NCBI GenBank assembly: GCA_020638975.1
Contig: JACKHN010000020.1
Location: 1-64,000, forward strand
Source: Planctomycetaceae bacterium
GTDB taxonomy: Bacteria; Planctomycetota; Planctomycetia; Pirellulales; Pirellulaceae
Reading direction: 5' to 3'
Length of the DNA stretch: 64,000 nucleotides
Shown here: positions 4,672 through 34,349 of the stretch, one piece after another
How positions within the stretch are numbered: position 1 is the first letter of the stretch
How the letters are laid out: the number at the start of each line of letters is the position of its first letter
The notes under the pieces: model-generated
Databases searched by the model: none
What the model was told of the DNA's origin: nothing
What the model saw: only the letters and a program-made list of their open reading frames with translations
Position numbers and translations under genes: made by a program

Positions 4672-7047
4672 ATGAAACTTGTAGGACAAGCAATTCAATC
4701 CTCTCACTTCGCAATCGAGCCCCCACTGATGATCCGCATCTTGTTGAACACAGCCATTTGCATTGTTATGGCCGGCTCCGTCGTTGGCATCGCGGCGGAG
4801 CCACGCATCGACCACTTCCGCCAGCTTGATGACGTTTGGCCGACGCCGAATGACATTCGCCGACCATCGGGTGCTCCTGGCAAGGACTATTGGCAGCAGA
4901 AAGTCGACTATACGATCAACGTCACGATTGATGACGAGCGGCAAATCGTTACAGGGTCGGAGAAGATCACCTACCACAACAACTCGCCGGATGAACTGTC
5001 AGTGCTGTGGCTTCAGTTGGATCAGAATCGCTATGAACTCGATTCGGATGATTGGTTGTCGACGACTGCTTCCGATCTCAAACAACTGTCGTACGACGGG
5101 CTGCGAACGATTCTGTCTCGACAACAGTTCGATGGTGGATTCAAGATCTCGAAAGTCGTCGACGAGAAAGGCCAACCGCTGGAGCACAGCATCGTCCACA
5201 CGATGATGCGAGTGCATCTTACCAAGCCGCTCAATCCGAGCAAATCCACAACGTTTTCGATCGATTGGCGTTTCAAGATCCCGGATGCCAAAGCGATGAA
5301 AGTGCGTGGAGGCTTCGAGTTTTTTGAAAAGGACGGCAACTACGTCTACAACATTGCTCAATGGTATCCACGTTTGTGTGCGTATACCGATTACTGCGGC
5401 TGGCAGAATCGACAGACATTGGAAGCCGAGTTCGCATTGGAATTCGGTGACTTTAATGTCAGCATCACGGTGCCCAACGATCACATCGTCGCCTCGACGG
5501 GCGAACTGCAAAATCCGGACGATGTTCTTTCCGCGGAACAACGCAAGCGATTGGCCAGAGCTGCCAAGTCCGACACGCCGGTCTATATCGTGACTGAGGA
5601 GGAGGCGAAGAAGAACGAGTCGTCGAAGCCGACCGGCACGAGAACGTGGCAGTTCGCGGCGAAGAACGTACGCGACTTTGCCTTTGCATCGTCGCGAAAG
5701 TTCTTGTGGGATGCACAAGGTGTCGAATTGGGCGGCAAGACGGTGATGGCGATGTCCTACTGGCCTAAAGAAGGCCAGCCGCTGTGGGGGCAATACTCGA
5801 CGGCAGCGGTCGCGCACACGATCCGCACTTATTCGCGATTCACTTTCGACTATCCCTATCCCGTCATCATTTCCGTGAATGGACCGATTCCAGGGATGGA
5901 ATATCCGATGATTACGTTTCAGGATCCACGTCCGGAAGACGACGGCACGTACAGCGAGCGAACCAAGCATGGATTGATCAGCGTTATCATCCACGAAGTT
6001 GGGCACAGTTGGTTTCCGATGATCGTGAATTCGGACGAGCGGAGTTGGCGTTGGATGGATGAAGGTCTGAACTCGTTTGTGCAGTTCCTGGCCGAACAGG
6101 AGTGGGAAGAGTCTTACCCCAGCCGTTCGATTCGCCCGGATAGCAAGAAGAGCATGCAAGAGTATCTGCAGCGCACGGACATTCGTCCGATTATGTCCAA
6201 TGCTGACAACCTGATCTCAGGCGGGCACAATGCCTATGGGAAACCGACCTTGGCGTTGACGATCTTGCGCGAGTCGATTCTGGGGCGCGAACAGTTCGAT
6301 TACGCGTTTAAGGAGTATGCGAACCGTTGGAGATTCAAACGACCAACTCCCTTTGACTTCTTCCGCACGATGGAAGAGTCGTCGGGCCGGGATCTTGATT
6401 GGTTTTGGCGAGGCTGGTTCTATTCGATCGATCATGTTGATATCGCCATCGATCAAGTTCGCAAGTTCCGTTTGGACTCGCGTAACCCAGAGGTCGAGAA
6501 GCAACACGAGCGTGAAGAACGAGAACTTGCCACACCTTCGCTGACCGAACTACGCAATCGAGACCTTCCTAAGCGAGTCGATCAGTCCGACGAACTGAAA
6601 GACTTCTACACCGACTTCGATGACCTGATGGTGCTGCCAGCCGAGCAGAAGAGTTACCGCACACTTCTCGAAGGGTTGAAGCCGCACGAACGAGATTTAC
6701 TGCAAACGCAAGGCAATTTCTATGTTGTCGACTTCACGAATCTTGGCGGTGTCGTGATGCCGCTCGTGCTGGAGATCAAATACACCGACGATTCCAAGCA
6801 AAACGTGCGCATGCCCGCCGAAGTGTGGCGGCTGAACGGTAAACGGATCTCGAAACTGTTCTTCACGCACAAGGAGATTGCCAGTATCACGATCGATCCG
6901 TTAGACGAAACGGCGGATGGCGATCGCAACAACAACCGCTTTCCGCGATTACCGATCGAAGAGTCGTTTCAGTTGCAGAAGCCGAAGAAGACGAAGAACC
7001 CGATGCAGCAATTGAAGAAGGCAGAAAGCTCGCCGGAGGAGGAATAA
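4672..7047 (+). CDS. M1-family zinc metallopeptidase (gluzincin aminopeptidase-like), secreted
   Basis: HEVGHSWF-x18-E (HEXXH+18+E) zinc site and a GAMEN-like PGMEYP motif. An N-terminal hydrophobic signal is present. The start may instead be ATG 4729 (MIRILLNTAICIV...). Confidence 0.8.
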   Translation: MKLVGQAIQSSHFAIEPPLMIRILLNTAICIVMAGSVVGIAAEPRIDHFRQLDDVWPTPNDIRRPSGAPGKDYWQQKVDYTINVTIDDERQIVTGSEKITYHNNSPDELSVLWLQLDQNRYELDSDDWLSTTASDLKQLSYDGLRTILSRQQFDGGFKISKVVDEKGQPLEHSIVHTMMRVHLTKPLNPSKSTTFSIDWRFKIPDAKAMKVRGGFEFFEKDGNYVYNIAQWYPRLCAYTDYCGWQNRQTLEAEFALEFGDFNVSITVPNDHIVASTGELQNPDDVLSAEQRKRLARAAKSDTPVYIVTEEEAKKNESSKPTGTRTWQFAAKNVRDFAFASSRKFLWDAQGVELGGKTVMAMSYWPKEGQPLWGQYSTAAVAHTIRTYSRFTFDYPYPVIISVNGPIPGMEYPMITFQDPRPEDDGTYSERTKHGLISVIIHEVGHSWFPMIVNSDERSWRWMDEGLNSFVQFLAEQEWEESYPSRSIRPDSKKSMQEYLQRTDIRPIMSNADNLISGGHNAYGKPTLALTILRESILGREQFDYAFKEYANRWRFKRPTPFDFFRTMEESSGRDLDWFWRGWFYSIDHVDIAIDQVRKFRLDSRNPEVEKQHEREERELATPSLTELRNRDLPKRVDQSDELKDFYTDFDDLMVLPAEQKSYRTLLEGLKPHERDLLQTQGNFYVVDFTNLGGVVMPLVLEIKYTDDSKQNVRMPAEVWRLNGKRISKLFFTHKEIASITIDPLDETADGDRNNNRFPRLPIEESFQLQKPKKTKNPMQQLKKAESSPEEE

Positions 7048-7053
7048 TCGCGT

Positions 7054-8406
7054 TCACGAAACTGCGGGATCAGCGGAATCGTGGGCCGCGATGGCGGCTC
7101 GGGAAAGGCTCAATGCGATTGCTGCCAGCACGATGCACGCGACGCTGAGTACGACATAAATCAACCAAGGCAGTCGCTCCGTGAGCGGTAATGGCTCCGG
7201 TTCGAAGAGCGGATTCGCCGTTCGCATTCCCAACGCTGCACGCGTTGGTTCAGGTGTCAGTCGTTGCGGGAGATTTCTAGCAAAGTCGTAGGTTGGATCT
7301 TCTGCATCAGGATTCCCGAAGTACAGTCGGCACGACTCGGATTGTTGGGACGAAGCGATTACGACCTGACGGGCATCAGCGGCAAAGGTTACTTGTTGAA
7401 TTTGCAAAGGTGGGTTCCGGTTATCGGTCACGATCAATCGTAATCGGGCCGCTCGAGCTTCGGGGAACTCGCTGCGCAACGGCTTTGTGGGTTCGCCAGC
7501 GCGCTTCCGCCAAACACCTGTGGCAATCGTGCTGAAACCCGTACCCGAGCCTTCTGGACCGCCAGCTTCGATTTGGTAATTTCGCACGAACGCTTCATCG
7601 GCGATATGGACTTCGATACTTGATACCGGCGTCTGATCACCACCAAGCTCACACACCCAGCGCGAGCCGGGACCGCTGTCGGTGGGAATGGCTTCACGCT
7701 CGCCAACGCGGGCGTTCAAGGTCAAAGTCTCGCCCGGCACTTCCACGGTTCGCAAAACAGTCACTTCCTCGATCGTAACAGCCTGCTTGTCGACCAGTGG
7801 ATCGCGAAACAACTTGATGCGGAGATAACGATAGCGACTCAATGGGTATTCGATCGCTTGATCTCGGAGCACTTTGTCACCACGGCGAAAGTCGACCAAA
7901 GGTTGCTCGTGCAAGGGCCTCCACTGTTCACCATCGTCGCTGCCTTCGAGCGTGAAGAGTCGGCGATAGTTCTGGCCGGGCAGTTGTATCTCTAAGGCAT
8001 TATGCTCCAACTTGCCGTCACCAAGATCAAGTGTCAGCTCACTCGATTGATCGGGGCCTTCCGTACGGTTGAACTCGCGAGCCTCCAGCGGTTGTCGTTC
8101 TGATCGCTTGCTGCGAACTCGCAATGCATACGGCACTTCTTTGCCGCTGGCCGTGAAAACTCGGAGGTCGTGCAAATCGTATCGGGCCCCGTCGAATATC
8201 TCTGGTGTGAGGATCACATCCATCCACTCACTTGTAGCCTCGGCGGAGCGTTCAATCGCTGCGGTATGTTGCCAACGGATCGGCGACTCGCTGGTGGTGC
8301 TGGCAACTGGATTCTGTTGACTGAACGCGGACGTGCTCCAAAGCGACAAGCCGGCTACGCAAGTTGCCATCCAACGTATTCGTTTCGTGATTGGTTGTTC
8401 ATGCAT
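7054..8406 (-). CDS. Secreted protein with N-terminal signal and C-terminal TM anchor (DUF3999-like)
   Basis: Signal peptide MATCVAGLSLWSTSAFSQQ and C-terminal TM LIYVVLSVACIVLAAIALSL. It overlaps the upstream DUF2339-like gene by 8 nt, so translational coupling is likely. Pfam DUF3999 and DUF2339 proteins are typically neighbours, and the ~450 aa size fits. Confidence 0.5.
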   Translation of the reverse strand: MHEQPITKRIRWMATCVAGLSLWSTSAFSQQNPVASTTSESPIRWQHTAAIERSAEATSEWMDVILTPEIFDGARYDLHDLRVFTASGKEVPYALRVRSKRSERQPLEAREFNRTEGPDQSSELTLDLGDGKLEHNALEIQLPGQNYRRLFTLEGSDDGEQWRPLHEQPLVDFRRGDKVLRDQAIEYPLSRYRYLRIKLFRDPLVDKQAVTIEEVTVLRTVEVPGETLTLNARVGEREAIPTDSGPGSRWVCELGGDQTPVSSIEVHIADEAFVRNYQIEAGGPEGSGTGFSTIATGVWRKRAGEPTKPLRSEFPEARAARLRLIVTDNRNPPLQIQQVTFAADARQVVIASSQQSESCRLYFGNPDAEDPTYDFARNLPQRLTPEPTRAALGMRTANPLFEPEPLPLTERLPWLIYVVLSVACIVLAAIALSLSRAAIAAHDSADPAVS

Positions 8407-21551: not shown

Positions 21552-22487
21552 CTAGTCACCTGTCGGCGAAGGAGGTTCGTACTCGAAGTCCTTCCATTTC
21601 ATCGCACGGCGGAAAGGTTCAATACGGAGAATAACTTCGCCATCCTTGAACAACCGGACCGTACCATTCGATTCACTGACAACGACCGCAATCGCATTGG
21701 TACTCTTGCTGATCGCGGCAGCTGCCCAGTGACGTGATCCCAGACCTTTGGACAACGTCAGGTTGACGTGATCGGCATCCACGATCTGACACGCCTTTTC
21801 CACCGTCCCATCCGGCGCGACGATAAACGCTCCGTCGAGCGGGGCGATTTCTTTGACCGCTTCGCGAACGCGGGGATCCGGCAGCGAGCGTTCCTTGCGA
21901 CCATAGCCCTTGACGGGGTCGAAGCCTGCCGGATGGCTGAGCGCGATGACTTTACGGGTGTCGCCGACGACAAACATCGTCCCGACCGGCTTGCCTTCGC
22001 GGCCTTCGCGTCCGATTTCGACGGCCAGATCGACGACGACCTTCAGAGTCTCGAGCGGGACGCTTGTTTCGATTTGCCGTAAGTCGCGAGCGGTCAGTCG
22101 CCCGAGGTGCTCGTCGAGTCGGATGAAGCTGATCGAGTCCATCGAATCGGCTTCGAAACCGCTGTAGACCGCAATGATCTCCGAATTGGGCTCTAGAATC
22201 TCGTTCGCCACACCTTCGAGCAGCGCGTGTGTCAACTTCTCGAAAACAGGCGAATCGTGCATTCCCAGCACGATGGTCTCAAGGCCAGCTTCCTTAGCAC
22301 CTTCCAATGCTTCGGCCGTGTCTGCGGCAACCAGAATCTTCTCGTGTCCGGCGCGTTCGCTGAGCTCCTTCCAGTCGGTCGGACCATCGAGGATCACAAG
22401 CAAAACATCAGCATCCACCTGCTTACTCAGGCTGACGGCTAAACCGTAGATCGAGGCGAATTGCTCGTTGAAACGTTGCTGTTTCAT
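21552..22487 (-). CDS. Diadenylate cyclase (DAC/DisA_N) domain protein with a distinct ~150-aa N-terminal domain (DacZ-like architecture)
   Basis: The C-terminal DAC motifs match the c-di-AMP synthase signature (DGA...GTRH...RHRAA...VVSEE): DGAFIVAPDG, KGLGSRHWAAAAIS and AIAVVVSESNGTVRLF. Confidence 0.8.
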   Translation of the reverse strand: MKQQRFNEQFASIYGLAVSLSKQVDADVLLVILDGPTDWKELSERAGHEKILVAADTAEALEGAKEAGLETIVLGMHDSPVFEKLTHALLEGVANEILEPNSEIIAVYSGFEADSMDSISFIRLDEHLGRLTARDLRQIETSVPLETLKVVVDLAVEIGREGREGKPVGTMFVVGDTRKVIALSHPAGFDPVKGYGRKERSLPDPRVREAVKEIAPLDGAFIVAPDGTVEKACQIVDADHVNLTLSKGLGSRHWAAAAISKSTNAIAVVVSESNGTVRLFKDGEVILRIEPFRRAMKWKDFEYEPPSPTGD

Positions 22488-27698: not shown

Positions 27699-30041
27699 TT
27701 AAATCAACTGTTCGATGCTTTCTAACAGATTGCTTTGATCGAAACCGCTTTTTACCAGATAGACGCTGGCCCCAACGCGTATGCCTCGCGTCTTGTCTTC
27801 GTCCGACTCGCGCGCCGTGACCAGAATCACAGGCAGTTCGCCGAGCCTTTTCGATTTGCGAATCTTATCAGTCAGCGTAAATCCGTCCATACGTGGCATA
27901 TCAATGTCGCTCACAACAAGATCCACCTCCGTGTGACTAAGTAATTCCCATGCCTGGGCACCATCTGCCGCCGAGGTGACTTCGTAGCCAGCGGCTTCGA
28001 GGATGCTCTTCATGAGCGTCCGCGTCGTCACGGAATCGTCCACAGCCAACACCCGTTTCCGCTGTTGAGTTCTCGCTTGCGGTCTCGCAACGACGAGCGG
28101 ACGAGCCGTCTGAGTTCCTAATGCCGTCCCGACCACGTTCTGCACATTCAATACCAACGCCACACTGCCCGACGGCAACAAAGTCGCGCCCGATATATGG
28201 CGGGCATACCGAATGCGAGTCCCGAGGCTCTTGACGAGCACCTCCTGTTCGGCAAGTAAGTCGTCAACGACCAGTGCCACACGCTGGTCGCCGGCGCCAA
28301 TGACTACCGCGAGCATCTTCGAGCTATCTGAGTTTCCCTCATACCTGCCCATCTCCAGCACTTCGGAAAGTACCGTCACCGGCGTGGGCGTTCCGCCAAG
28401 AAGGAGGACATCACGTCCGCTTACTTTGGCGATACTGCCAGGATCAAAGCGAACCAATTGCTGAACCGATGACGTCGAGAGCGCGTAAGTCTGTTGTGCA
28501 GCCAGCACTAACAAGCAGCGAACCGTCGTTAGCGTTAGTGGAACATTGATAGTAAACTTCGTCCCGACACCCTCTTGAAATTCCACGTCCACCGAGCCGT
28601 GTAATGCCTGCACGCCGCTCGCAACAACATCCAAACCAACCCCCCGTCCCGATACGTCCGTAACTGTCGACGCGGTCGAAAATCCCGGCAGAAATACCAA
28701 TCGGGCTTGCTCGGACGGATCGTTTGGCACAGCGATTCCACGTTGTTGTGCGTGCTTGCAAATTCCTCTTAGATCGAATCCGCGACCATCATCTGCGACA
28801 GCGACTTCGATCTGCCCTCCTCGCAACTCTGCAGATACCGTCACGGACGCTTGTGACGGTTTGCCAGTCTTCGAGCGTTCCACAGACAACTCGATTCCAT
28901 GGTCAATGGCATTCCTCACAAGATGCAGGACAGGATCCTTCAGCCCCTCGAGGACGGAGCGATCGACTTCGACATCCTCTCCCTTGATCACAAGGCGAAC
29001 ATCCTTTCCCGTCACCTGAGCAAGATCGCGAACTGCGCGTTCGAGCCCACCGCATGCCTCGGCGAACGGCAGCATGCGGACGCGGTAAACTTCATCGTTC
29101 AACGCGTCGCAGGTATGCCGCAGCACGCGTGCGTCTGCTGCGACGTTCGCGGCGAGACGATCGGCGGCCTTTTCTATCTTTGCCAATTGGTCTCCGGTGC
29201 GTTCCAGAATCGCCACGGTTCGTCGCGGCAATTTACTCTTAATGGCAGCGGCAAGCCACGCATCGTCTGGCTCGGTCAGCAGTTTGTGTAAAGGCTTGGC
29301 CCATTCGTTCCAGTCGCCTTGCAAATCGGACAGCGACTCGCTCAATTCGCTCGATTCGATAGTCCGTTGGTCAATCCGCTGGCGAGCGACAAGCAACTCG
29401 CCATTTTGTGAAAGCAATGCGTCCAACTTTTCGGCAGCCACTCGAACCGAGGCACTACTTGCCGCAGATGGCGTGTGCACGGCTTCCACCGGTGAATCAA
29501 CTTCGGAAGCTGACGTCTGCGCCGGAGACTCGGTGGAAGGTGCACTCTCTTCGATTGCGTGTGGCGGGACGATGTCGACCGCTGACTGCGTCGCAACAGC
29601 CTTCTCGTCTAAGACGCCAACGATACCGGCGGAACCTTTGTTCTTCGCCGCATTTCGCAACTCTGGGATTAGGGTGTGTAATGAAGCGTCTTCGAACGGC
29701 TGGTCATCACGAAGCCGCATTCCAACTTCTTGGATTGCATCGGCTACTTTAAAGAACAACGAAAATAAATCGGGAGTGAGTTCGCGCCGGCCATCCCGCA
29801 CCTCGACCAAGATGTCCTCCATGATGTGACAAGCATCCTCGATGATTTCGATATTCACCGCCCGCGATGCGCCTTTGAGACTGTGTGCCGAACGGAACAA
29901 CACCTTCATCACGTCGGCACGCTGCTCGGTGGGTAATCCGCGTTCCAACGTAAGCAAATCGCGATTCATTGCTTCAACGTGTTCATGAAGCTCTTCCAGG
30001 TAAGTCGCCATCAAGCGTTTTGCGAGTTCTTGTCTATCCAT
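27699..30041 (-). CDS. cheA: Hybrid chemotaxis histidine kinase CheA with C-terminal CheY-like receiver
   Basis: HPt domain (HSLKGASRAVN), HATPase_c (NAIDHGIE...DDGRGFD...GRGVGLDVV), a CheW-like domain, and a C-terminal REC (VLAVDDSVTTR...VVSDIDMPRMDG). Confidence 0.9.
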   Translation of the reverse strand: MDRQELAKRLMATYLEELHEHVEAMNRDLLTLERGLPTEQRADVMKVLFRSAHSLKGASRAVNIEIIEDACHIMEDILVEVRDGRRELTPDLFSLFFKVADAIQEVGMRLRDDQPFEDASLHTLIPELRNAAKNKGSAGIVGVLDEKAVATQSAVDIVPPHAIEESAPSTESPAQTSASEVDSPVEAVHTPSAASSASVRVAAEKLDALLSQNGELLVARQRIDQRTIESSELSESLSDLQGDWNEWAKPLHKLLTEPDDAWLAAAIKSKLPRRTVAILERTGDQLAKIEKAADRLAANVAADARVLRHTCDALNDEVYRVRMLPFAEACGGLERAVRDLAQVTGKDVRLVIKGEDVEVDRSVLEGLKDPVLHLVRNAIDHGIELSVERSKTGKPSQASVTVSAELRGGQIEVAVADDGRGFDLRGICKHAQQRGIAVPNDPSEQARLVFLPGFSTASTVTDVSGRGVGLDVVASGVQALHGSVDVEFQEGVGTKFTINVPLTLTTVRCLLVLAAQQTYALSTSSVQQLVRFDPGSIAKVSGRDVLLLGGTPTPVTVLSEVLEMGRYEGNSDSSKMLAVVIGAGDQRVALVVDDLLAEQEVLVKSLGTRIRYARHISGATLLPSGSVALVLNVQNVVGTALGTQTARPLVVARPQARTQQRKRVLAVDDSVTTRTLMKSILEAAGYEVTSAADGAQAWELLSHTEVDLVVSDIDMPRMDGFTLTDKIRKSKRLGELPVILVTARESDEDKTRGIRVGASVYLVKSGFDQSNLLESIEQLI

Positions 30042-30510
30042 GAGGAATCACCTTTCGTACATCAATCAGACTGGCAAGAAGCTCGAATCGAGATGACCGC
30101 GCAACGACTTGCCTCACTCTGACCTTGACGTGTTCATGGTCATCGAACTGCTGTAGACGCCATGTGCAAATCAGCATGGACTGATAGACATGCATCGGTC
30201 GCAGATTGGACTCGACGGCGAAAGGGTAATCAGATTCGTCAACGCTGACAACAGTTTCGCTGAGACGATTTTCATTCCATACTTCGATGATGCGATCCAG
30301 CGAACGGTTAAGCAGTTCCGGTTTTGCATAGACATGTGTCGGTGAAATCCCATCCGGAAAGTTGACTGAGTCCAGCGGGATTGCTGCCAAAGGGTCGCTC
30401 AAAAATGAGAGGCCCCGAACAACGAGTGGAACATTAGCCGAGACGACGCCAAATACGACGACGACAACAAACGCTCGGAAGCCGGTGGCTAGTCGCCGCA
30501 TCGCACTCAA
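30034..30510 (-). CDS. Hypothetical small protein with N-terminal signal/TM, embedded in che operon
   Basis: MRRLATGFRAFVVVVVFGVVSA is a hydrophobic N-terminus. There are 4-8 nt overlaps with both the cheW stop and the cheA start, implying translational coupling. Confidence 0.45.
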   Translation of the reverse strand: MSAMRRLATGFRAFVVVVVFGVVSANVPLVVRGLSFLSDPLAAIPLDSVNFPDGISPTHVYAKPELLNRSLDRIIEVWNENRLSETVVSVDESDYPFAVESNLRPMHVYQSMLICTWRLQQFDDHEHVKVRVRQVVARSSRFELLASLIDVRKVIPHG

Positions 30511-31124: not shown

Positions 31125-32590
31125 GATGTCGCCCCCAGTGCGGCATCAATCGCTCGCAAATGGTTCGTGGCCGCTCTCGCTAGTAGCCGCGACGTTTCGT
31201 GTTCGGACAAGGGAACTATTTCATCGGGAGCTCGAGCCGCTGCTAAATCCCGGGCATTTCGGAAAGCTCGCCTTGCCCCATCAAGCGTCCCACGTCGCTG
31301 CAAGATCGAACCGAGCAGAAAGTGCGCGAGGGCCAGCGAACGATCAAGAAACACGACTCGCTGCACCGCCTGCACCGCCTCGACATCCAAGTTCATCTCC
31401 ATCAGCAACACGGCGTGCAGATAATGCAGTTCCGCCGAAAGCGGATGACGGGTTGCGAACAACGCGCATTTTCGGATCGCTGCCTCGGTGCTTAAGTTTG
31501 CCAACGATTTCACATGGATAATGCACGCCGCCGGCTCATTGGGATGCGATTCCGAAAGCTCCACCGCCCGGGCATAATCACCTCGGGCAAGAGCCGCGTG
31601 AGCTTCGTCCTTGTCCCATCGAGTATCTCGATTGATTGCCGCCGTCGACTGAGAATCGCGATTTGCTTGCGATATATTTCCCGAGTTTGCTCCGTACAAA
31701 CCGTCGCGTGGTTCGTTTGTCTCCCATGCCGCCTCCGGAGCCACAACCGCTTCTGTCTTCGCAGCTGTGGGCTTGCGATAAAAGACTCCGAAGTCTGTGA
31801 CGGTCGTCTCGAAAGGAGCGAAATCTCCAACGGGAGGATCACCGGATGCTGTAATAAACCAACCACCGTCGGCAAGGCACTGAAAGAACCGTTGTGCAAC
31901 TTCACGGATCGTCGAGCGACTCAGATAGATCAAAACGTTTCGACAGAGAATCAAATCCATCGCTTCGGTGCTCGTCACATGCGACGGATAGACATCCATT
32001 GCCAGATTCAGGAACTCAAAGCGAACCATACGCCGAATTTTTTCATCGACGTAATAGATCCCTCTGTCGAATCTCAAGTACTCCTTCGCCTCGGCTTGTA
32101 ACTCTCCCCGCAACGACCAGTCGCGATAAGTGGCTTGGCGTGCTTTTGACAATGCTTCCGATGAAATGTCGGTGGCCAAGATCTCGCACTGACTTGCCAG
32201 TCCTTGCTTATGGCACAGCATCGCAAGCGAATAGGGTTCTTCTCCCGACGCGCACGCCGCACTCCAAATTCGCAACTTTTGCCAACCGCCCTTTCGTCGC
32301 AAGATTTCGGGAAGGATCTCGCGGCGAATCCCCTCGAACTGAGATGCCTCGCGAAAAAAGTAAGTCTCACCGACGGTTAACTCGACAATCAAGTTCTCTA
32401 ATGCCTCGACGTCATGCACCAGCAACTTGGCGTACGCCGACGACTCCGCTACACCGCTTCGCTTCATCGCGTTCGCAATTCCTATCTTGGTTGCTTCGCG
32501 TTGAGCCGCTCGAAAGGCGAGTCCAGTCCGCGCCCCTAAGATCGAAAGGATGGATTCGTAGGCTTCGTCCGTCCAGTTGATTTCCGTCAC
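31121..32590 (-). CDS. cheR: Chemotaxis protein methyltransferase CheR fused to C-terminal TPR repeats
   Basis: ETYFFRE, LRIWSAACASGEEPYSLAML and NVLIYL match CheR SAM-MTase motifs. The C-terminal ~200 aa are TPR-like helical repeats. Confidence 0.85.
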   Translation of the reverse strand: MTEINWTDEAYESILSILGARTGLAFRAAQREATKIGIANAMKRSGVAESSAYAKLLVHDVEALENLIVELTVGETYFFREASQFEGIRREILPEILRRKGGWQKLRIWSAACASGEEPYSLAMLCHKQGLASQCEILATDISSEALSKARQATYRDWSLRGELQAEAKEYLRFDRGIYYVDEKIRRMVRFEFLNLAMDVYPSHVTSTEAMDLILCRNVLIYLSRSTIREVAQRFFQCLADGGWFITASGDPPVGDFAPFETTVTDFGVFYRKPTAAKTEAVVAPEAAWETNEPRDGLYGANSGNISQANRDSQSTAAINRDTRWDKDEAHAALARGDYARAVELSESHPNEPAACIIHVKSLANLSTEAAIRKCALFATRHPLSAELHYLHAVLLMEMNLDVEAVQAVQRVVFLDRSLALAHFLLGSILQRRGTLDGARRAFRNARDLAAARAPDEIVPLSEHETSRLLARAATNHLRAIDAALGATS

Positions 32591-33051
32591 GTCGATGGTC
32601 CCTCCGTTTGGGACTCGACCAGAGCCGCAGCGCTAAGCGTACCTTCCATCGCCGCCAGTCTCTCGATATCGATTACATGCACGAGGCCGTCACTCGTTTT
32701 CGCCACGAAGTCAATCAGCCCAGTCTGCGGCAAAACCGTTGACGCGGCCTGCACATCGCATCCTGCTAACTGGACGAGATCGATCGCCACGTCAACGTGC
32801 AATGCGAGCGTCCGCTCGTCCGTAGCAACGACGATGAAATAGTCGGTGTGCCGAATCTTTCGAGAGTCGAGTGAAAACAACCGGCGCACATCAATAACCG
32901 GCAGAATCCGTCCTCGCAGATTCAACAGCCCCTCGACGATGTCGGGTGCTTGCGGGAGCGGCGACAATTTGACCGCGCGTACGACTTCCCGGACGTTGCG
33001 AAGCTGAACGCCGAATCGCTTATCTCCAACATCGAACAGCAGAGCTTCCAC
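32587..33051 (-). CDS. cheW: CheW coupling protein
   Basis: FGVQLRNVREVVRAVKLSPLPQAPDIVEGLLNLRGRILPVIDVRRLF is canonical CheW. Confidence 0.8.
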   Translation of the reverse strand: MEALLFDVGDKRFGVQLRNVREVVRAVKLSPLPQAPDIVEGLLNLRGRILPVIDVRRLFSLDSRKIRHTDYFIVVATDERTLALHVDVAIDLVQLAGCDVQAASTVLPQTGLIDFVAKTSDGLVHVIDIERLAAMEGTLSAAALVESQTEGPST

Positions 33052-33090
33052 TTAAACGCGCCCTCGAGAGGATCGGACGGGCGAACCAGT

Positions 33091-33170
33091 AGTGGTACAC
33101 TTTGTCGTAAGTCGACTTTGTCGTAAGTCGACTTTGTCGTAAGTCGACTTTGTCGTAAGTCGACTTTGTC
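33091..33170. repeat. Five tandem copies of a 16-bp unit (CTTTGTCGTAAGTCGA) followed by an 8-bp-stem hairpin, in the promoter region of the che operon
   Basis: Copies 1-4 are perfect head-to-tail and copy 5 ends ...tcgg. The hairpin gtcgggcactcctgcccgac follows at 33166-33185. The region lies 40-120 nt upstream of the first cheW start (33051). Confidence 0.8.
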
Positions 33171-33428
33171 GTAAGTCGGGCACTCCTGCCCGACAAAAGA
33201 CGGCCAAGAGTGGCCGTCCTACTTTCCGGAATTTCAAACTGTACCACTACCGGCGAACCGAAAAGACATGTCGCGGACCTATGGATCTATTCTAATGGAA
33301 GCGAATCGCACCTCCACACATTTAACGATCGAGACGGTTAAATCGAATATACGGATGTCCGATCCGCGAAACCCGCGAACGGGTTCGCGCGCCTAGGCTG
33401 TACCTCAGATTCAGGTCGACAACGGCAC

Positions 33429-33788
33429 TCAAGCGAATGCGTTCAAGGCCTCAGACTCTGTGTCGCAGATCTTGAAAAGAGTGCCTTCAAGATTAAGAAC
33501 CTTGAACGACATCCGCACATTCCGTTGAAGGTCGCACAGAATTAACTGGCCACCGTATTCATGGACGGCTTTGCGGACATCGACCAAGATGCCGATGGCA
33601 TTCGATCCCATGAACTCGACACTCTTGAGGCTCAGCACGAGTCGTTGCGGTGACGTCGTCGCAACGAGATCCGTCAACTCGTCACGGAGCTGCTCTTGGT
33701 AGTCCAGCTCCGATAGCTCCTTCGCCTTGACGTCAACGATCGTAATTTCGCCGGATTTGCGTACATCGAATCGTTGGTAATCGGTCAT
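33429..33788 (-). CDS. STAS-domain protein (anti-sigma-factor antagonist, SpoIIAA-like)
   Basis: ITIVDVKAKELSELD...LVLSLKSVEFMGSNAIGILVDV...GGQLILCDLQRNVRMSFKVLNLEGTLFKI matches the STAS fold. Start trimmed to MTDYQRF. Confidence 0.7.
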   Translation of the reverse strand: MTDYQRFDVRKSGEITIVDVKAKELSELDYQEQLRDELTDLVATTSPQRLVLSLKSVEFMGSNAIGILVDVRKAVHEYGGQLILCDLQRNVRMSFKVLNLEGTLFKICDTESEALNAFA

Positions 33789-34070
33789 GCAATTGCTCAC
33801 AGGTAGGAGTTCACCGAGTATTCCGCCGCCACGGAACATGCCAGTACGGATACTTAACTACCCCACCAGACTAACCATTGCATTACGCGGTGTCAAAAGG
33901 CCACGACGCGAGGGGCCATTGGTTTTCAAGCTTTGTTAACCCACACGACGATGGCTGGCGGAGAACAGCCGAAGCTGGATCGTGAGTGGAAATAACAAAG
34001 GCGGCAGCTGAATTCCGAGGAATCAGCTACCGCCTCAATGGGATTTCAAGTCGTCGGACGGGCCGAGCGA

Positions 34071-34349
34071 TTAGGCACAAGCGTTGGCGAAACCGCCGCT
34101 GATGATCTCTTGCTCAAGGCTCTCGATACGACCTGCGGTTCGGAACTGATGGGCGAGCATGGCACGGCCCGTCTTGGTCCAAACACCGATCGATCGACGG
34201 GATGCTTTAGTATTGGGGCACAAGAAGGTCACTTTGATGGGAGTGATTTCGTTGATCGTGACGCCCGCGTCGTGTTGCGAGTAATTCACAAGCAACTCGA
34301 CCCTGCGACTGGTCTCATCGTCCTCCCATACCGATTGGTAACTGTTCAT
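34071..34349 (-). CDS. Hypothetical small protein (92 aa)
   Basis: A strong GGGAG Shine-Dalgarno lies 7 nt upstream of MNSYQSVW. The opposite-strand ORF 34038-34454 looks less protein-like. Confidence 0.4.
   Translation of the reverse strand: MNSYQSVWEDDETSRRVELLVNYSQHDAGVTINEITPIKVTFLCPNTKASRRSIGVWTKTGRAMLAHQFRTAGRIESLEQEIISGGFANACA

Follow-up and report, generated by a model that had tools for sequence, protein, structure and literature searches.

A tandem array upstream of a planctomycete chemosensory operon as the probable internal expansion of an IS1-like MITE

The spacer between a STAS-domain gene and the first cheW gene of a Planctomycetaceae chemosensory cluster carries five identical 16-nt repeats, and these repeats lie within a 164-bp element with the anatomy of a MITE. 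It is very probable that the element, mobilised by an IS1-like transposase, was inserted between STAS and cheW, that one of its segments was amplified afterwards, and that the whole is a largely neutral passenger and not an operator. The insertion is documented by inverted repeats, a target duplication, an empty site in relatives, single-unit copies of the element elsewhere, and transposase-encoding elements with the same ends. The feature is real, its explanation is an ordinary one, and elements of this kind are well known. A regular array in front of an operon resembles an operator, and the tempting reading is corrected here by what appears to be an amplified transposon segment. The locus lies in the window, which denotes the whole stretch of 64,000 nucleotides that was analysed, and its features in window coordinates are as follows.

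32587..33051, minus strand: cheW, first gene of the che cluster, with a GTG start 36 nt downstream of the MITE
33080..33087, no strand: left target-site duplication GGCGAACC, an identical 8-mer standing directly outside both inverted repeats
33088..33251, no strand: whole MITE, 164 bp, delimited by alignment with 14 other copies
33088..33104, plus strand: left terminal inverted repeat AGTAGTGGTACACTTTG (canonical form GGTAGTGG...)
33099..33178, no strand: tandem array of 5 x ACTTTGTCGTAAGTCG, with the junction palindrome AAGTCGACTT four times
33175..33194, no strand: hairpin H1, GTCGGGCA-CTCC-TGCCCGAC (= GTCGGGCACTCCTGCCCGAC), 8-bp stem
33199..33218, no strand: hairpin H2, GACGGCCA-AGAG-TGGCCGTC (= GACGGCCAAGAGTGGCCGTC), 8-bp stem
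33235..33251, minus strand: right terminal inverted repeat CAAACTGTACCACTACC, from a repeat search
33252..33259, no strand: right target-site duplication GGCGAACC, the same 8-mer as at 33080-33087
33287..33345, minus strand: conserved block, candidate che promoter/operator, from spacer alignment with the related loci L137, L139 and L141
33429..33839, minus strand: STAS-domain gene, called as 119 or 136 aa

The five perfect 16-bp repeats announced by the original prediction are real. Tandem Repeats Finder reported a perfect array at 33099-33178 (period 16, 5.0 copies, 100% matches, score 160), which is the strongest tandem repeat of the whole window; the coordinates first given, 33091-33170, were 8-9 nt too low. 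The array consists of five ACTTTGTCGTAAGTCG units that are 100% identical. Read in the frame of the 16-mer CTTTGTCGTAAGTCGA (33100-33179), it holds four exact occurrences and one with a single mismatch, and with up to three mismatches allowed this 16-mer has six matches in the window against 0.52 expected, a number that was reached in 0 of 100 window shuffles. The unit had been described as partially palindromic, but the unit is not itself a palindrome; the 10-mer palindrome AAGTCGACTT arises instead at the four unit junctions (33109, 33125, 33141 and 33157). An 8-bp-stem hairpin at the end of the array had been correctly noticed, namely H1, which overlaps the final unit and is kept in every MITE copy compared, whereas the second hairpin, H2, had been missed. 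The position of the array between the STAS gene and the first cheW was likewise confirmed, with Pfam matches to STAS (PF01740) upstream and CheW (PF01584) downstream, both on the minus strand.

Besides the array, the window has no further copy of the 16-mer at up to three mismatches except at 22072, where the match differs from the window unit at three positions and lies inside a minus-strand ORF of 311 aa. Within it, 14 nt (22073-22086) are identical to the canonical MITE unit (TTTGCCGTAAGTCG), although the number expected in a 64-kb sequence is only about 5e-4; around these 14 nt there is no inverted repeat, hairpin or other MITE feature. The site was rejected as a further MITE copy because it falls within a coding region and lacks MITE features, and on the same grounds the match is taken to be probably due to chance. 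CRISPR and REP readings of the array were also rejected, as spacers are absent and the element has inverted repeats and a target duplication.

The terminal arms at 33088-33104 and 33235-33251 are identical at 15 of 17 positions and, when extended to 19 nt in the repeat search, are 89% complementary. The 12-nt end occurs in the window at the two element ends alone, with 0.06 occurrences expected. Inverted repeats bounded by identical 8-mers constitute the anatomy of a transposon insertion with target-site duplication. The ORFs that run across the repeats are mechanical only (61-75 aa), and the window contains neither a transposase homologue nor a second copy of the element. Every MITE trait that was tested is present in the element: inverted repeats, a duplication with its empty site, appropriate size, dispersal, and ends shared with a larger element.

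The dispersal is evident from two scans. In the metagenome scan, made with a pattern for the right end that was written to leave out the che locus, CAAACTGTACCACTACC was found on at least 120 contigs whose outer flanks were all unrelated. Among the matches listed, the same element was present on nine metagenome contigs with 93-98% identity to one another, representing eight independent loci since L084 and L094 share one locus. The genome scan with the hairpin core added five loci from NP86, a MAG of the Planctomycetaceae, and a single locus from a Pirellulaceae MAG. The 14 independent copies among the matches listed are about 100 bp long (91-101 bp) and carry one 16-nt unit each, which in all 14 is a single-copy subterminal segment; its customary forms are ACTTTGCCGTAAGTCG, ACTTCGCCG... 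and AGTTTGCCG... These copies occupy unrelated loci with different flanks and different duplications, and most of them are flanked by a perfect 8-bp duplication of their own, such as CACACGTC, TAACAGCG, AAATTCTA and CGCCTACG. The original prediction had named as evidence against itself a finding that the array is a generic dispersed repeat with no link to che genes; the element is indeed such a repeat, but the five-unit array was found only here.

The host of one copy (L047) is another species, because the aldehyde dehydrogenase adjoining it has a best NCBI relative of 88%, its 99% match being in JGI data only. A scan of the genome collection with GTGGTACACTTTGTCGTAAG, which comprises the left end and the first unit, gave 0 matches among the species representatives; this pattern includes a C-to-T change private to the window copy, and the source genome stands outside the representatives scanned. 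In a Pirellulaceae MAG, the two-hairpin core (L135:~6020-6170, minus orientation) is bounded by different inverted repeats, GGTAGTGTCCTAAGTT...AATTAGGACACTTCC, and here the core seems to have been joined to the termini of a different element.

Evidence for the empty site comes from syntenic loci (efp, small ORF, STAS, cheW, cheR, cheW, cheA) in four related metagenomic genomes, which were chosen via CheW homologues of 65-78% identity (spacers L137, L138, L139/L140 and L141). The array is absent from all four STAS-cheW spacers, which are 79-214 bp long. The window spacer aligns with them once the 164-bp element and one GGCGAACC are subtracted. In the minus sense, the window reads GGTTCGCC[element]GGTTCGCC, whereas a single uninterrupted ...CTGTTCGCCCG... 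is found in L137, L139 and L141. As these relatives have no insertion, the che operon works without the MITE. The gene content of the clusters also differs. In L137, from the closest related species (CheW 78%), STAS and cheW are separated by a response-regulator/SpoIIE (PP2C phosphatase) gene, and cheA is preceded by a HAMP-PAS gene (L137:2770-3921 and 6984-8264); the window cluster has neither of them.

Compared with the canonical 100-bp element, the window copy has exactly four added units, which account for the additional 64 bp. All five units share a C-to-T change that is private to this copy (ACTTTGCCGTAAGTCG to ACTTTGTCGTAAGTCG); therefore the amplification took place in this lineage, after the insertion or at any rate after that mutation. 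Since the other copies carry one unit, the array is a lineage-specific expansion inside the MITE, and as none of the other family copies among the matches listed has an expanded array, the tendency to expand is not a trait of the family.

The sequence of events would then be as follows. A non-autonomous MITE of about 100 bp, mobilised by a transposase resembling those of the IS1 family, would have entered the STAS-cheW spacer of a Planctomycetaceae lineage, duplicating the 8-bp target GGCGAACC at a point 36 nt before the cheW start codon and on the downstream side of the conserved block that probably holds the che promoter. The 16-nt subterminal segment would have acquired the C-to-T change, and the mutated segment would have been amplified to five identical head-to-tail copies, most likely by replication slippage or unequal recombination. 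Slippage is the mechanism that we infer. Because each new junction forms a 10-bp palindrome, neighbouring junctions can form 10-bp hairpins, and an array with identical units and such hairpins is expected to be prone to gain and loss of units, as in a VNTR.

Copy number was compared among contigs that encode identical or 99% identical CheW or STAS, all of them from short-read assemblies. Five units are present in the window, in GCA_020639015.1, in GCA_020426725.1 and in two JGI assemblies; four units in GCA_035446945.1 (ERZ795053), in Ga0116152 (ERZ27257452) and in one WANG18 scaffold; and two units in ERZ27257486, while another contig of the same sample has at least three. These counts, the five included, are to be read as lower bounds because the array may collapse in short-read assembly. 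A de Bruijn assembler would be expected to shrink a perfect period-16 array (longer than k+15) to a length of k to k+15, and array lengths of 64, 32 and 80 bp would fit k values of 55/59, 21/29 and 77/79, respectively. The predicted slippage-proneness has some support in that near-identical strains (CheW 99-100% identical) show 5, 4 and 2 units, but the differences may be collapse artefacts, since short-read assemblers can collapse perfect arrays. The unit differences are suggestive of a slippage-prone VNTR inside a dispersed repeat.

Many contigs stop in or beside the element. In two contigs, L151 and L155, the che-side half of the MITE runs into the end of a different copy whose flank is foreign; the joins may have been made in assembly, as chimeras between MITE copies, or may reflect a genuine rearrangement mediated by the MITE. 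These joins, in which the end of the other copy reads CTTACGGGAAAG..., lie at L151:~1090-1533 and at the end of L155, and the foreign flank encodes the N-terminus of an ECF sigma factor; for this far flank of the chimeric contig L151, no near-identical protein is on record. An assembly artefact that is absent from the organism would account for such breaks in or beside the array, but complete arrays with both unique flanks occur in at least eight independent assemblies and only the number of units is uncertain, which makes an artefactual origin of the array extremely improbable.

Regarding the parent transposon, at least 25 elements of 0.1-3.9 kb among the metagenome matches listed have the ends GGTAGTGGTACA...TGTACCACTACC and lie between perfect 8-bp duplications, and among the matches listed an ORF of about 290 aa is found in 17 of the 22 longer elements (1-4 kb). 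Judged from sequence, the ends are common to the MITE and to these transposase-encoding elements of 1-4 kb. The MITE-parent match is limited to the outer ~22 nt, and a parent with the same subterminal hairpins was not found. The ~290-aa protein matches Pfam DDE_Tnp_IS1 (PF03400) with 27.1 and 37.4 bits (gathering score 24.1); its best NCBIfam match is IS1 (NF033558) with 51-74 bits, which is under the cut-off of 100, and in IMG it is labelled ‘IS1 family transposase’. The ends of the element, GGTAGTG, agree with GGnnnTG. IS1 family members have 8-9 bp direct repeats and GGnnnTG ends as ISfinder traits (PMC10425158, Table 8). The IS6 family also has GGnnnTG ends and an 8-bp duplication (PMC6807381). 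Hence the parent is named only ‘IS1-like’, as IS6 shares both the end motif and the duplication size.

L031 and L053 each encode the transposase in one ORF (288 or 304 aa) that begins with an HTH domain, and each lacks the insA/insB' frameshift arrangement. A single-ORF transposase presumably fits only the single-ORF IS1 subgroups (ISMhu11-like members with passenger genes); ISMhu11 is not named in the literature found on the IS1 family. The parent resembles the IS1 family in its GGnnnTG ends, its 8-bp direct repeat and its score above the threshold of Pfam DDE_Tnp_IS1, but differs from it in having one ~290-aa ORF with no InsA/InsB frameshift, in falling below the NCBIfam IS1 cut-off, and in forming 1-4 kb elements with cargo genes; the end motif and duplication size are moreover those of IS6/IS26. 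Example elements are L031:1699-5092 and L053:9972-13671, and further ones are found in L060, L064, L098, L105 and L124. The cargo of the 1-4 kb elements is varied, with a proteasome-like protein, a 417-aa HTH_3 protein and a response regulator among the examples. The family with ends GGTAGTGGTACAGTTTGAAATT is spread over at least 120 metagenome contigs from soil, peat and sludge (L011-L130), with widely varying host GC, and its ends are shared by several small MITEs of unrelated sequence, among them elements of ~150 bp in L035 and L112.

The host genes are all transcribed from the minus strand, in the order STAS, 377-bp spacer, cheW, cheR, cheW, hypothetical gene and cheA-REC. The original prediction placed the array in the promoter of the che operon, which was an inference and not an observation. 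A promoter scan (sigma-70 consensus) and a terminator scan of 32500-34200 called nothing, H2 included, and because of the null promoter scan the position of the che promoter is drawn solely from conservation. The conserved block at 33287-33345 (CGATTTAACCGTC..GATCGTTAAA..TGGAGG..CCATTAGAATAG) contains the inverted repeat TTTAACG/CGTTAAA and is still present in L137, although cheW follows another gene there. The block is likely to be the che promoter/operator, and a -10-like hexamer, TAGAAT, can be proposed within it at 33294..33289 on the minus strand. The MITE would accordingly sit between the block and the cheW start, i.e., in the presumed leader, to which the insertion would add 172 nt with a very stable fold, and changes in unit number would alter this length in 16-nt steps. 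An effect on che expression through a longer, structured 5' leader is possible. We nevertheless assume that the MITE is a passenger of the che leader, neutral for the most part and no more than mildly polar.

Just past the STAS stop codon there is a hairpin, CGCGAACCCG-TTCG-CGGGTTTCGCG (33365-33389, minus strand), which may be the STAS terminator; at the same position, L141 has a hairpin of other sequence (CTCGCC..GGCGAG) followed by TTTCGC. Between the second cheW and cheA, a 158-aa ORF (30034-30510, minus strand) has no Pfam match. A similar-sized ORF is present there in L001, L002 and L137 and is missing from L138, L139 and L141.

Function could reside in the whole MITE and not in its array. 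Its stable structure and the terminator-like GGACGGCCACUCUUGGCCGUC-UUUUGU might attenuate transcription that reads through from STAS or starts at the che promoter, or might make the mRNA more stable. The che-sense (minus-strand) RNA of the spacer folds with -109.9 kcal/mol (z = -6.5), in a structure where the outer stem of the inverted repeats encloses four hairpins, i.e., H2, H1 and two 10-bp hairpins made from adjacent junction palindromes; the element as single-stranded DNA folds similarly (z = -8.8). On the minus, mRNA-sense strand, UUUUGU comes after H2; this short U run exists in the che orientation only and would be a weak terminator-like feature. MITEs and BOX elements can change the expression of neighbouring genes (PMC3049150, PMC10969869), which also counts in favour. 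On the other hand, the terminator scan made no call, and the U run comprises just four residues, which not all copies have kept. H1 and H2 are nearly invariant among the 15 element copies, which are too alike for compensatory pairs and have none in these hairpins; covariation is limited to the inverted repeats, as transposon ends would predict. In Rfam, no match of the spacer reached its gathering score, the top one being the gyrA RNA (19 bits vs 45, E = 0.07). A function of the whole MITE is considered unlikely.

Other readings assign the function to the units. One of them is a copy-number rheostat or phase-variation switch, in which gain and loss of 16-bp units would tune chemotaxis expression among cells or strains via the promoter-to-start-codon distance or the 5'-UTR structure. 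Identical units with junction hairpins favour slippage, the assemblies contain 5, 4 and 2 units with one sample showing both a 2-unit and an at least 3-unit contig, the array stands between the conserved upstream block and the cheW start, and exaptation would make the switch compatible with a MITE origin. However, assembler collapse may explain the unit differences, a 16-bp step in an array of 32-80 bp cannot alter the -35/-10 spacing, the other MITE copies listed are unexpanded, and the che operon of relatives has no insertion; we regard such a switch as quite unlikely. It is very unlikely, too, that the expansion has been co-opted in a broader sense, with the unit number, or the AAGTCGACTT junction palindromes and hairpins, determining how long and how structured the che leader is or giving rise to a new protein-binding array. 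The operator or iteron-like array of the original prediction can be pictured as a dimeric protein that would bind four AAGTCGACTT palindromes 16 bp apart and regulate che; such a reading draws on the perfection of these 10-bp palindromes, their regular spacing and their place upstream of an operon. Yet the palindromes exist only as junctions of the duplication and single-unit copies are devoid of them; the array lies inside a transposable element, its unit is single-copy in the 14 other copies, and it is missing from all orthologous spacers examined. A 16-bp spacing would moreover set successive sites on different helix faces, no regulator gene is associated, and apart from the 3-mismatch site at 22072 in a coding region the window contains no further copy of the 16-mer. 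Being unconserved at the orthologous site and built on by-products of duplication, the operator reading is not supported, and we give it hardly any credence. The preferred reading remains that of a MITE with a lineage-specific internal expansion.

Such an element has counterparts in other bacteria. With the Correia elements of Neisseria and RUP of S. pneumoniae it has in common a small non-coding body (here 100-164 bp), inverted repeats, target-site duplication, dispersed intergenic copies, the ends of a transposase-encoding element, a strongly folded transcript and a position near a gene start; it differs from them in its IS1-like parent (8-bp duplication, GGTAGTG...), its Planctomycetes hosts and its internal tandem expansion. 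The closest functional analogue would be the pneumococcal BOX elements (boxA, variable boxB, boxC), which are similarly MITE-like and have an internal module in variable tandem number. The number of boxB modules differs between strains, longer arrays vary more, and BOX elements are found close to genes whose expression they can change (PMC3049150). In BOX, the variability of the 45-nt boxB is family-wide, whereas here the unit is 16 nt and only the che-locus copy is expanded, and there is no sequence relationship between the two. Contingency loci and VNTRs likewise present a perfect tandem array near a gene start and apparent copy-number differences between strains. Classical contingency repeats have units of 1-7 bp; in contrast, the unit here is 16 bp, there is no evident on/off logic, and the apparent variation comes from short-read assemblies. 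A full-text literature search for the end sequence returned only unrelated primer or gene sequences and no paper describing it, and among the titles and abstracts found for MITEs in Planctomycetes the present family did not appear.

The practical value of the locus is modest. It documents an IS1-like MITE family in Planctomycetes, with a clean insertion and an empty site before a chemosensory operon. The array is a candidate VNTR marker by which strains of an uncultured lineage could be typed, and the locus is flagged as one at which metagenome assemblies are liable to break or become chimeric. If the unit number did affect che expression, the locus would be an example of a regulatory polymorphism created by a MITE; and if the array had been co-opted, slippage would produce heritable and reversible variation of chemotaxis expression in a planctomycete population. 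To our knowledge, no MITE-borne contingency locus is known in Planctomycetes, and a co-opted array would be one. The window contains a second perfect tandem repeat, GTCATTG x 4.9 at 53734-53767, which fills the short spacer between a 470-aa ORF (52322-53734), leuC-like as judged by position, and a leuD-like gene that begins at ~53789.
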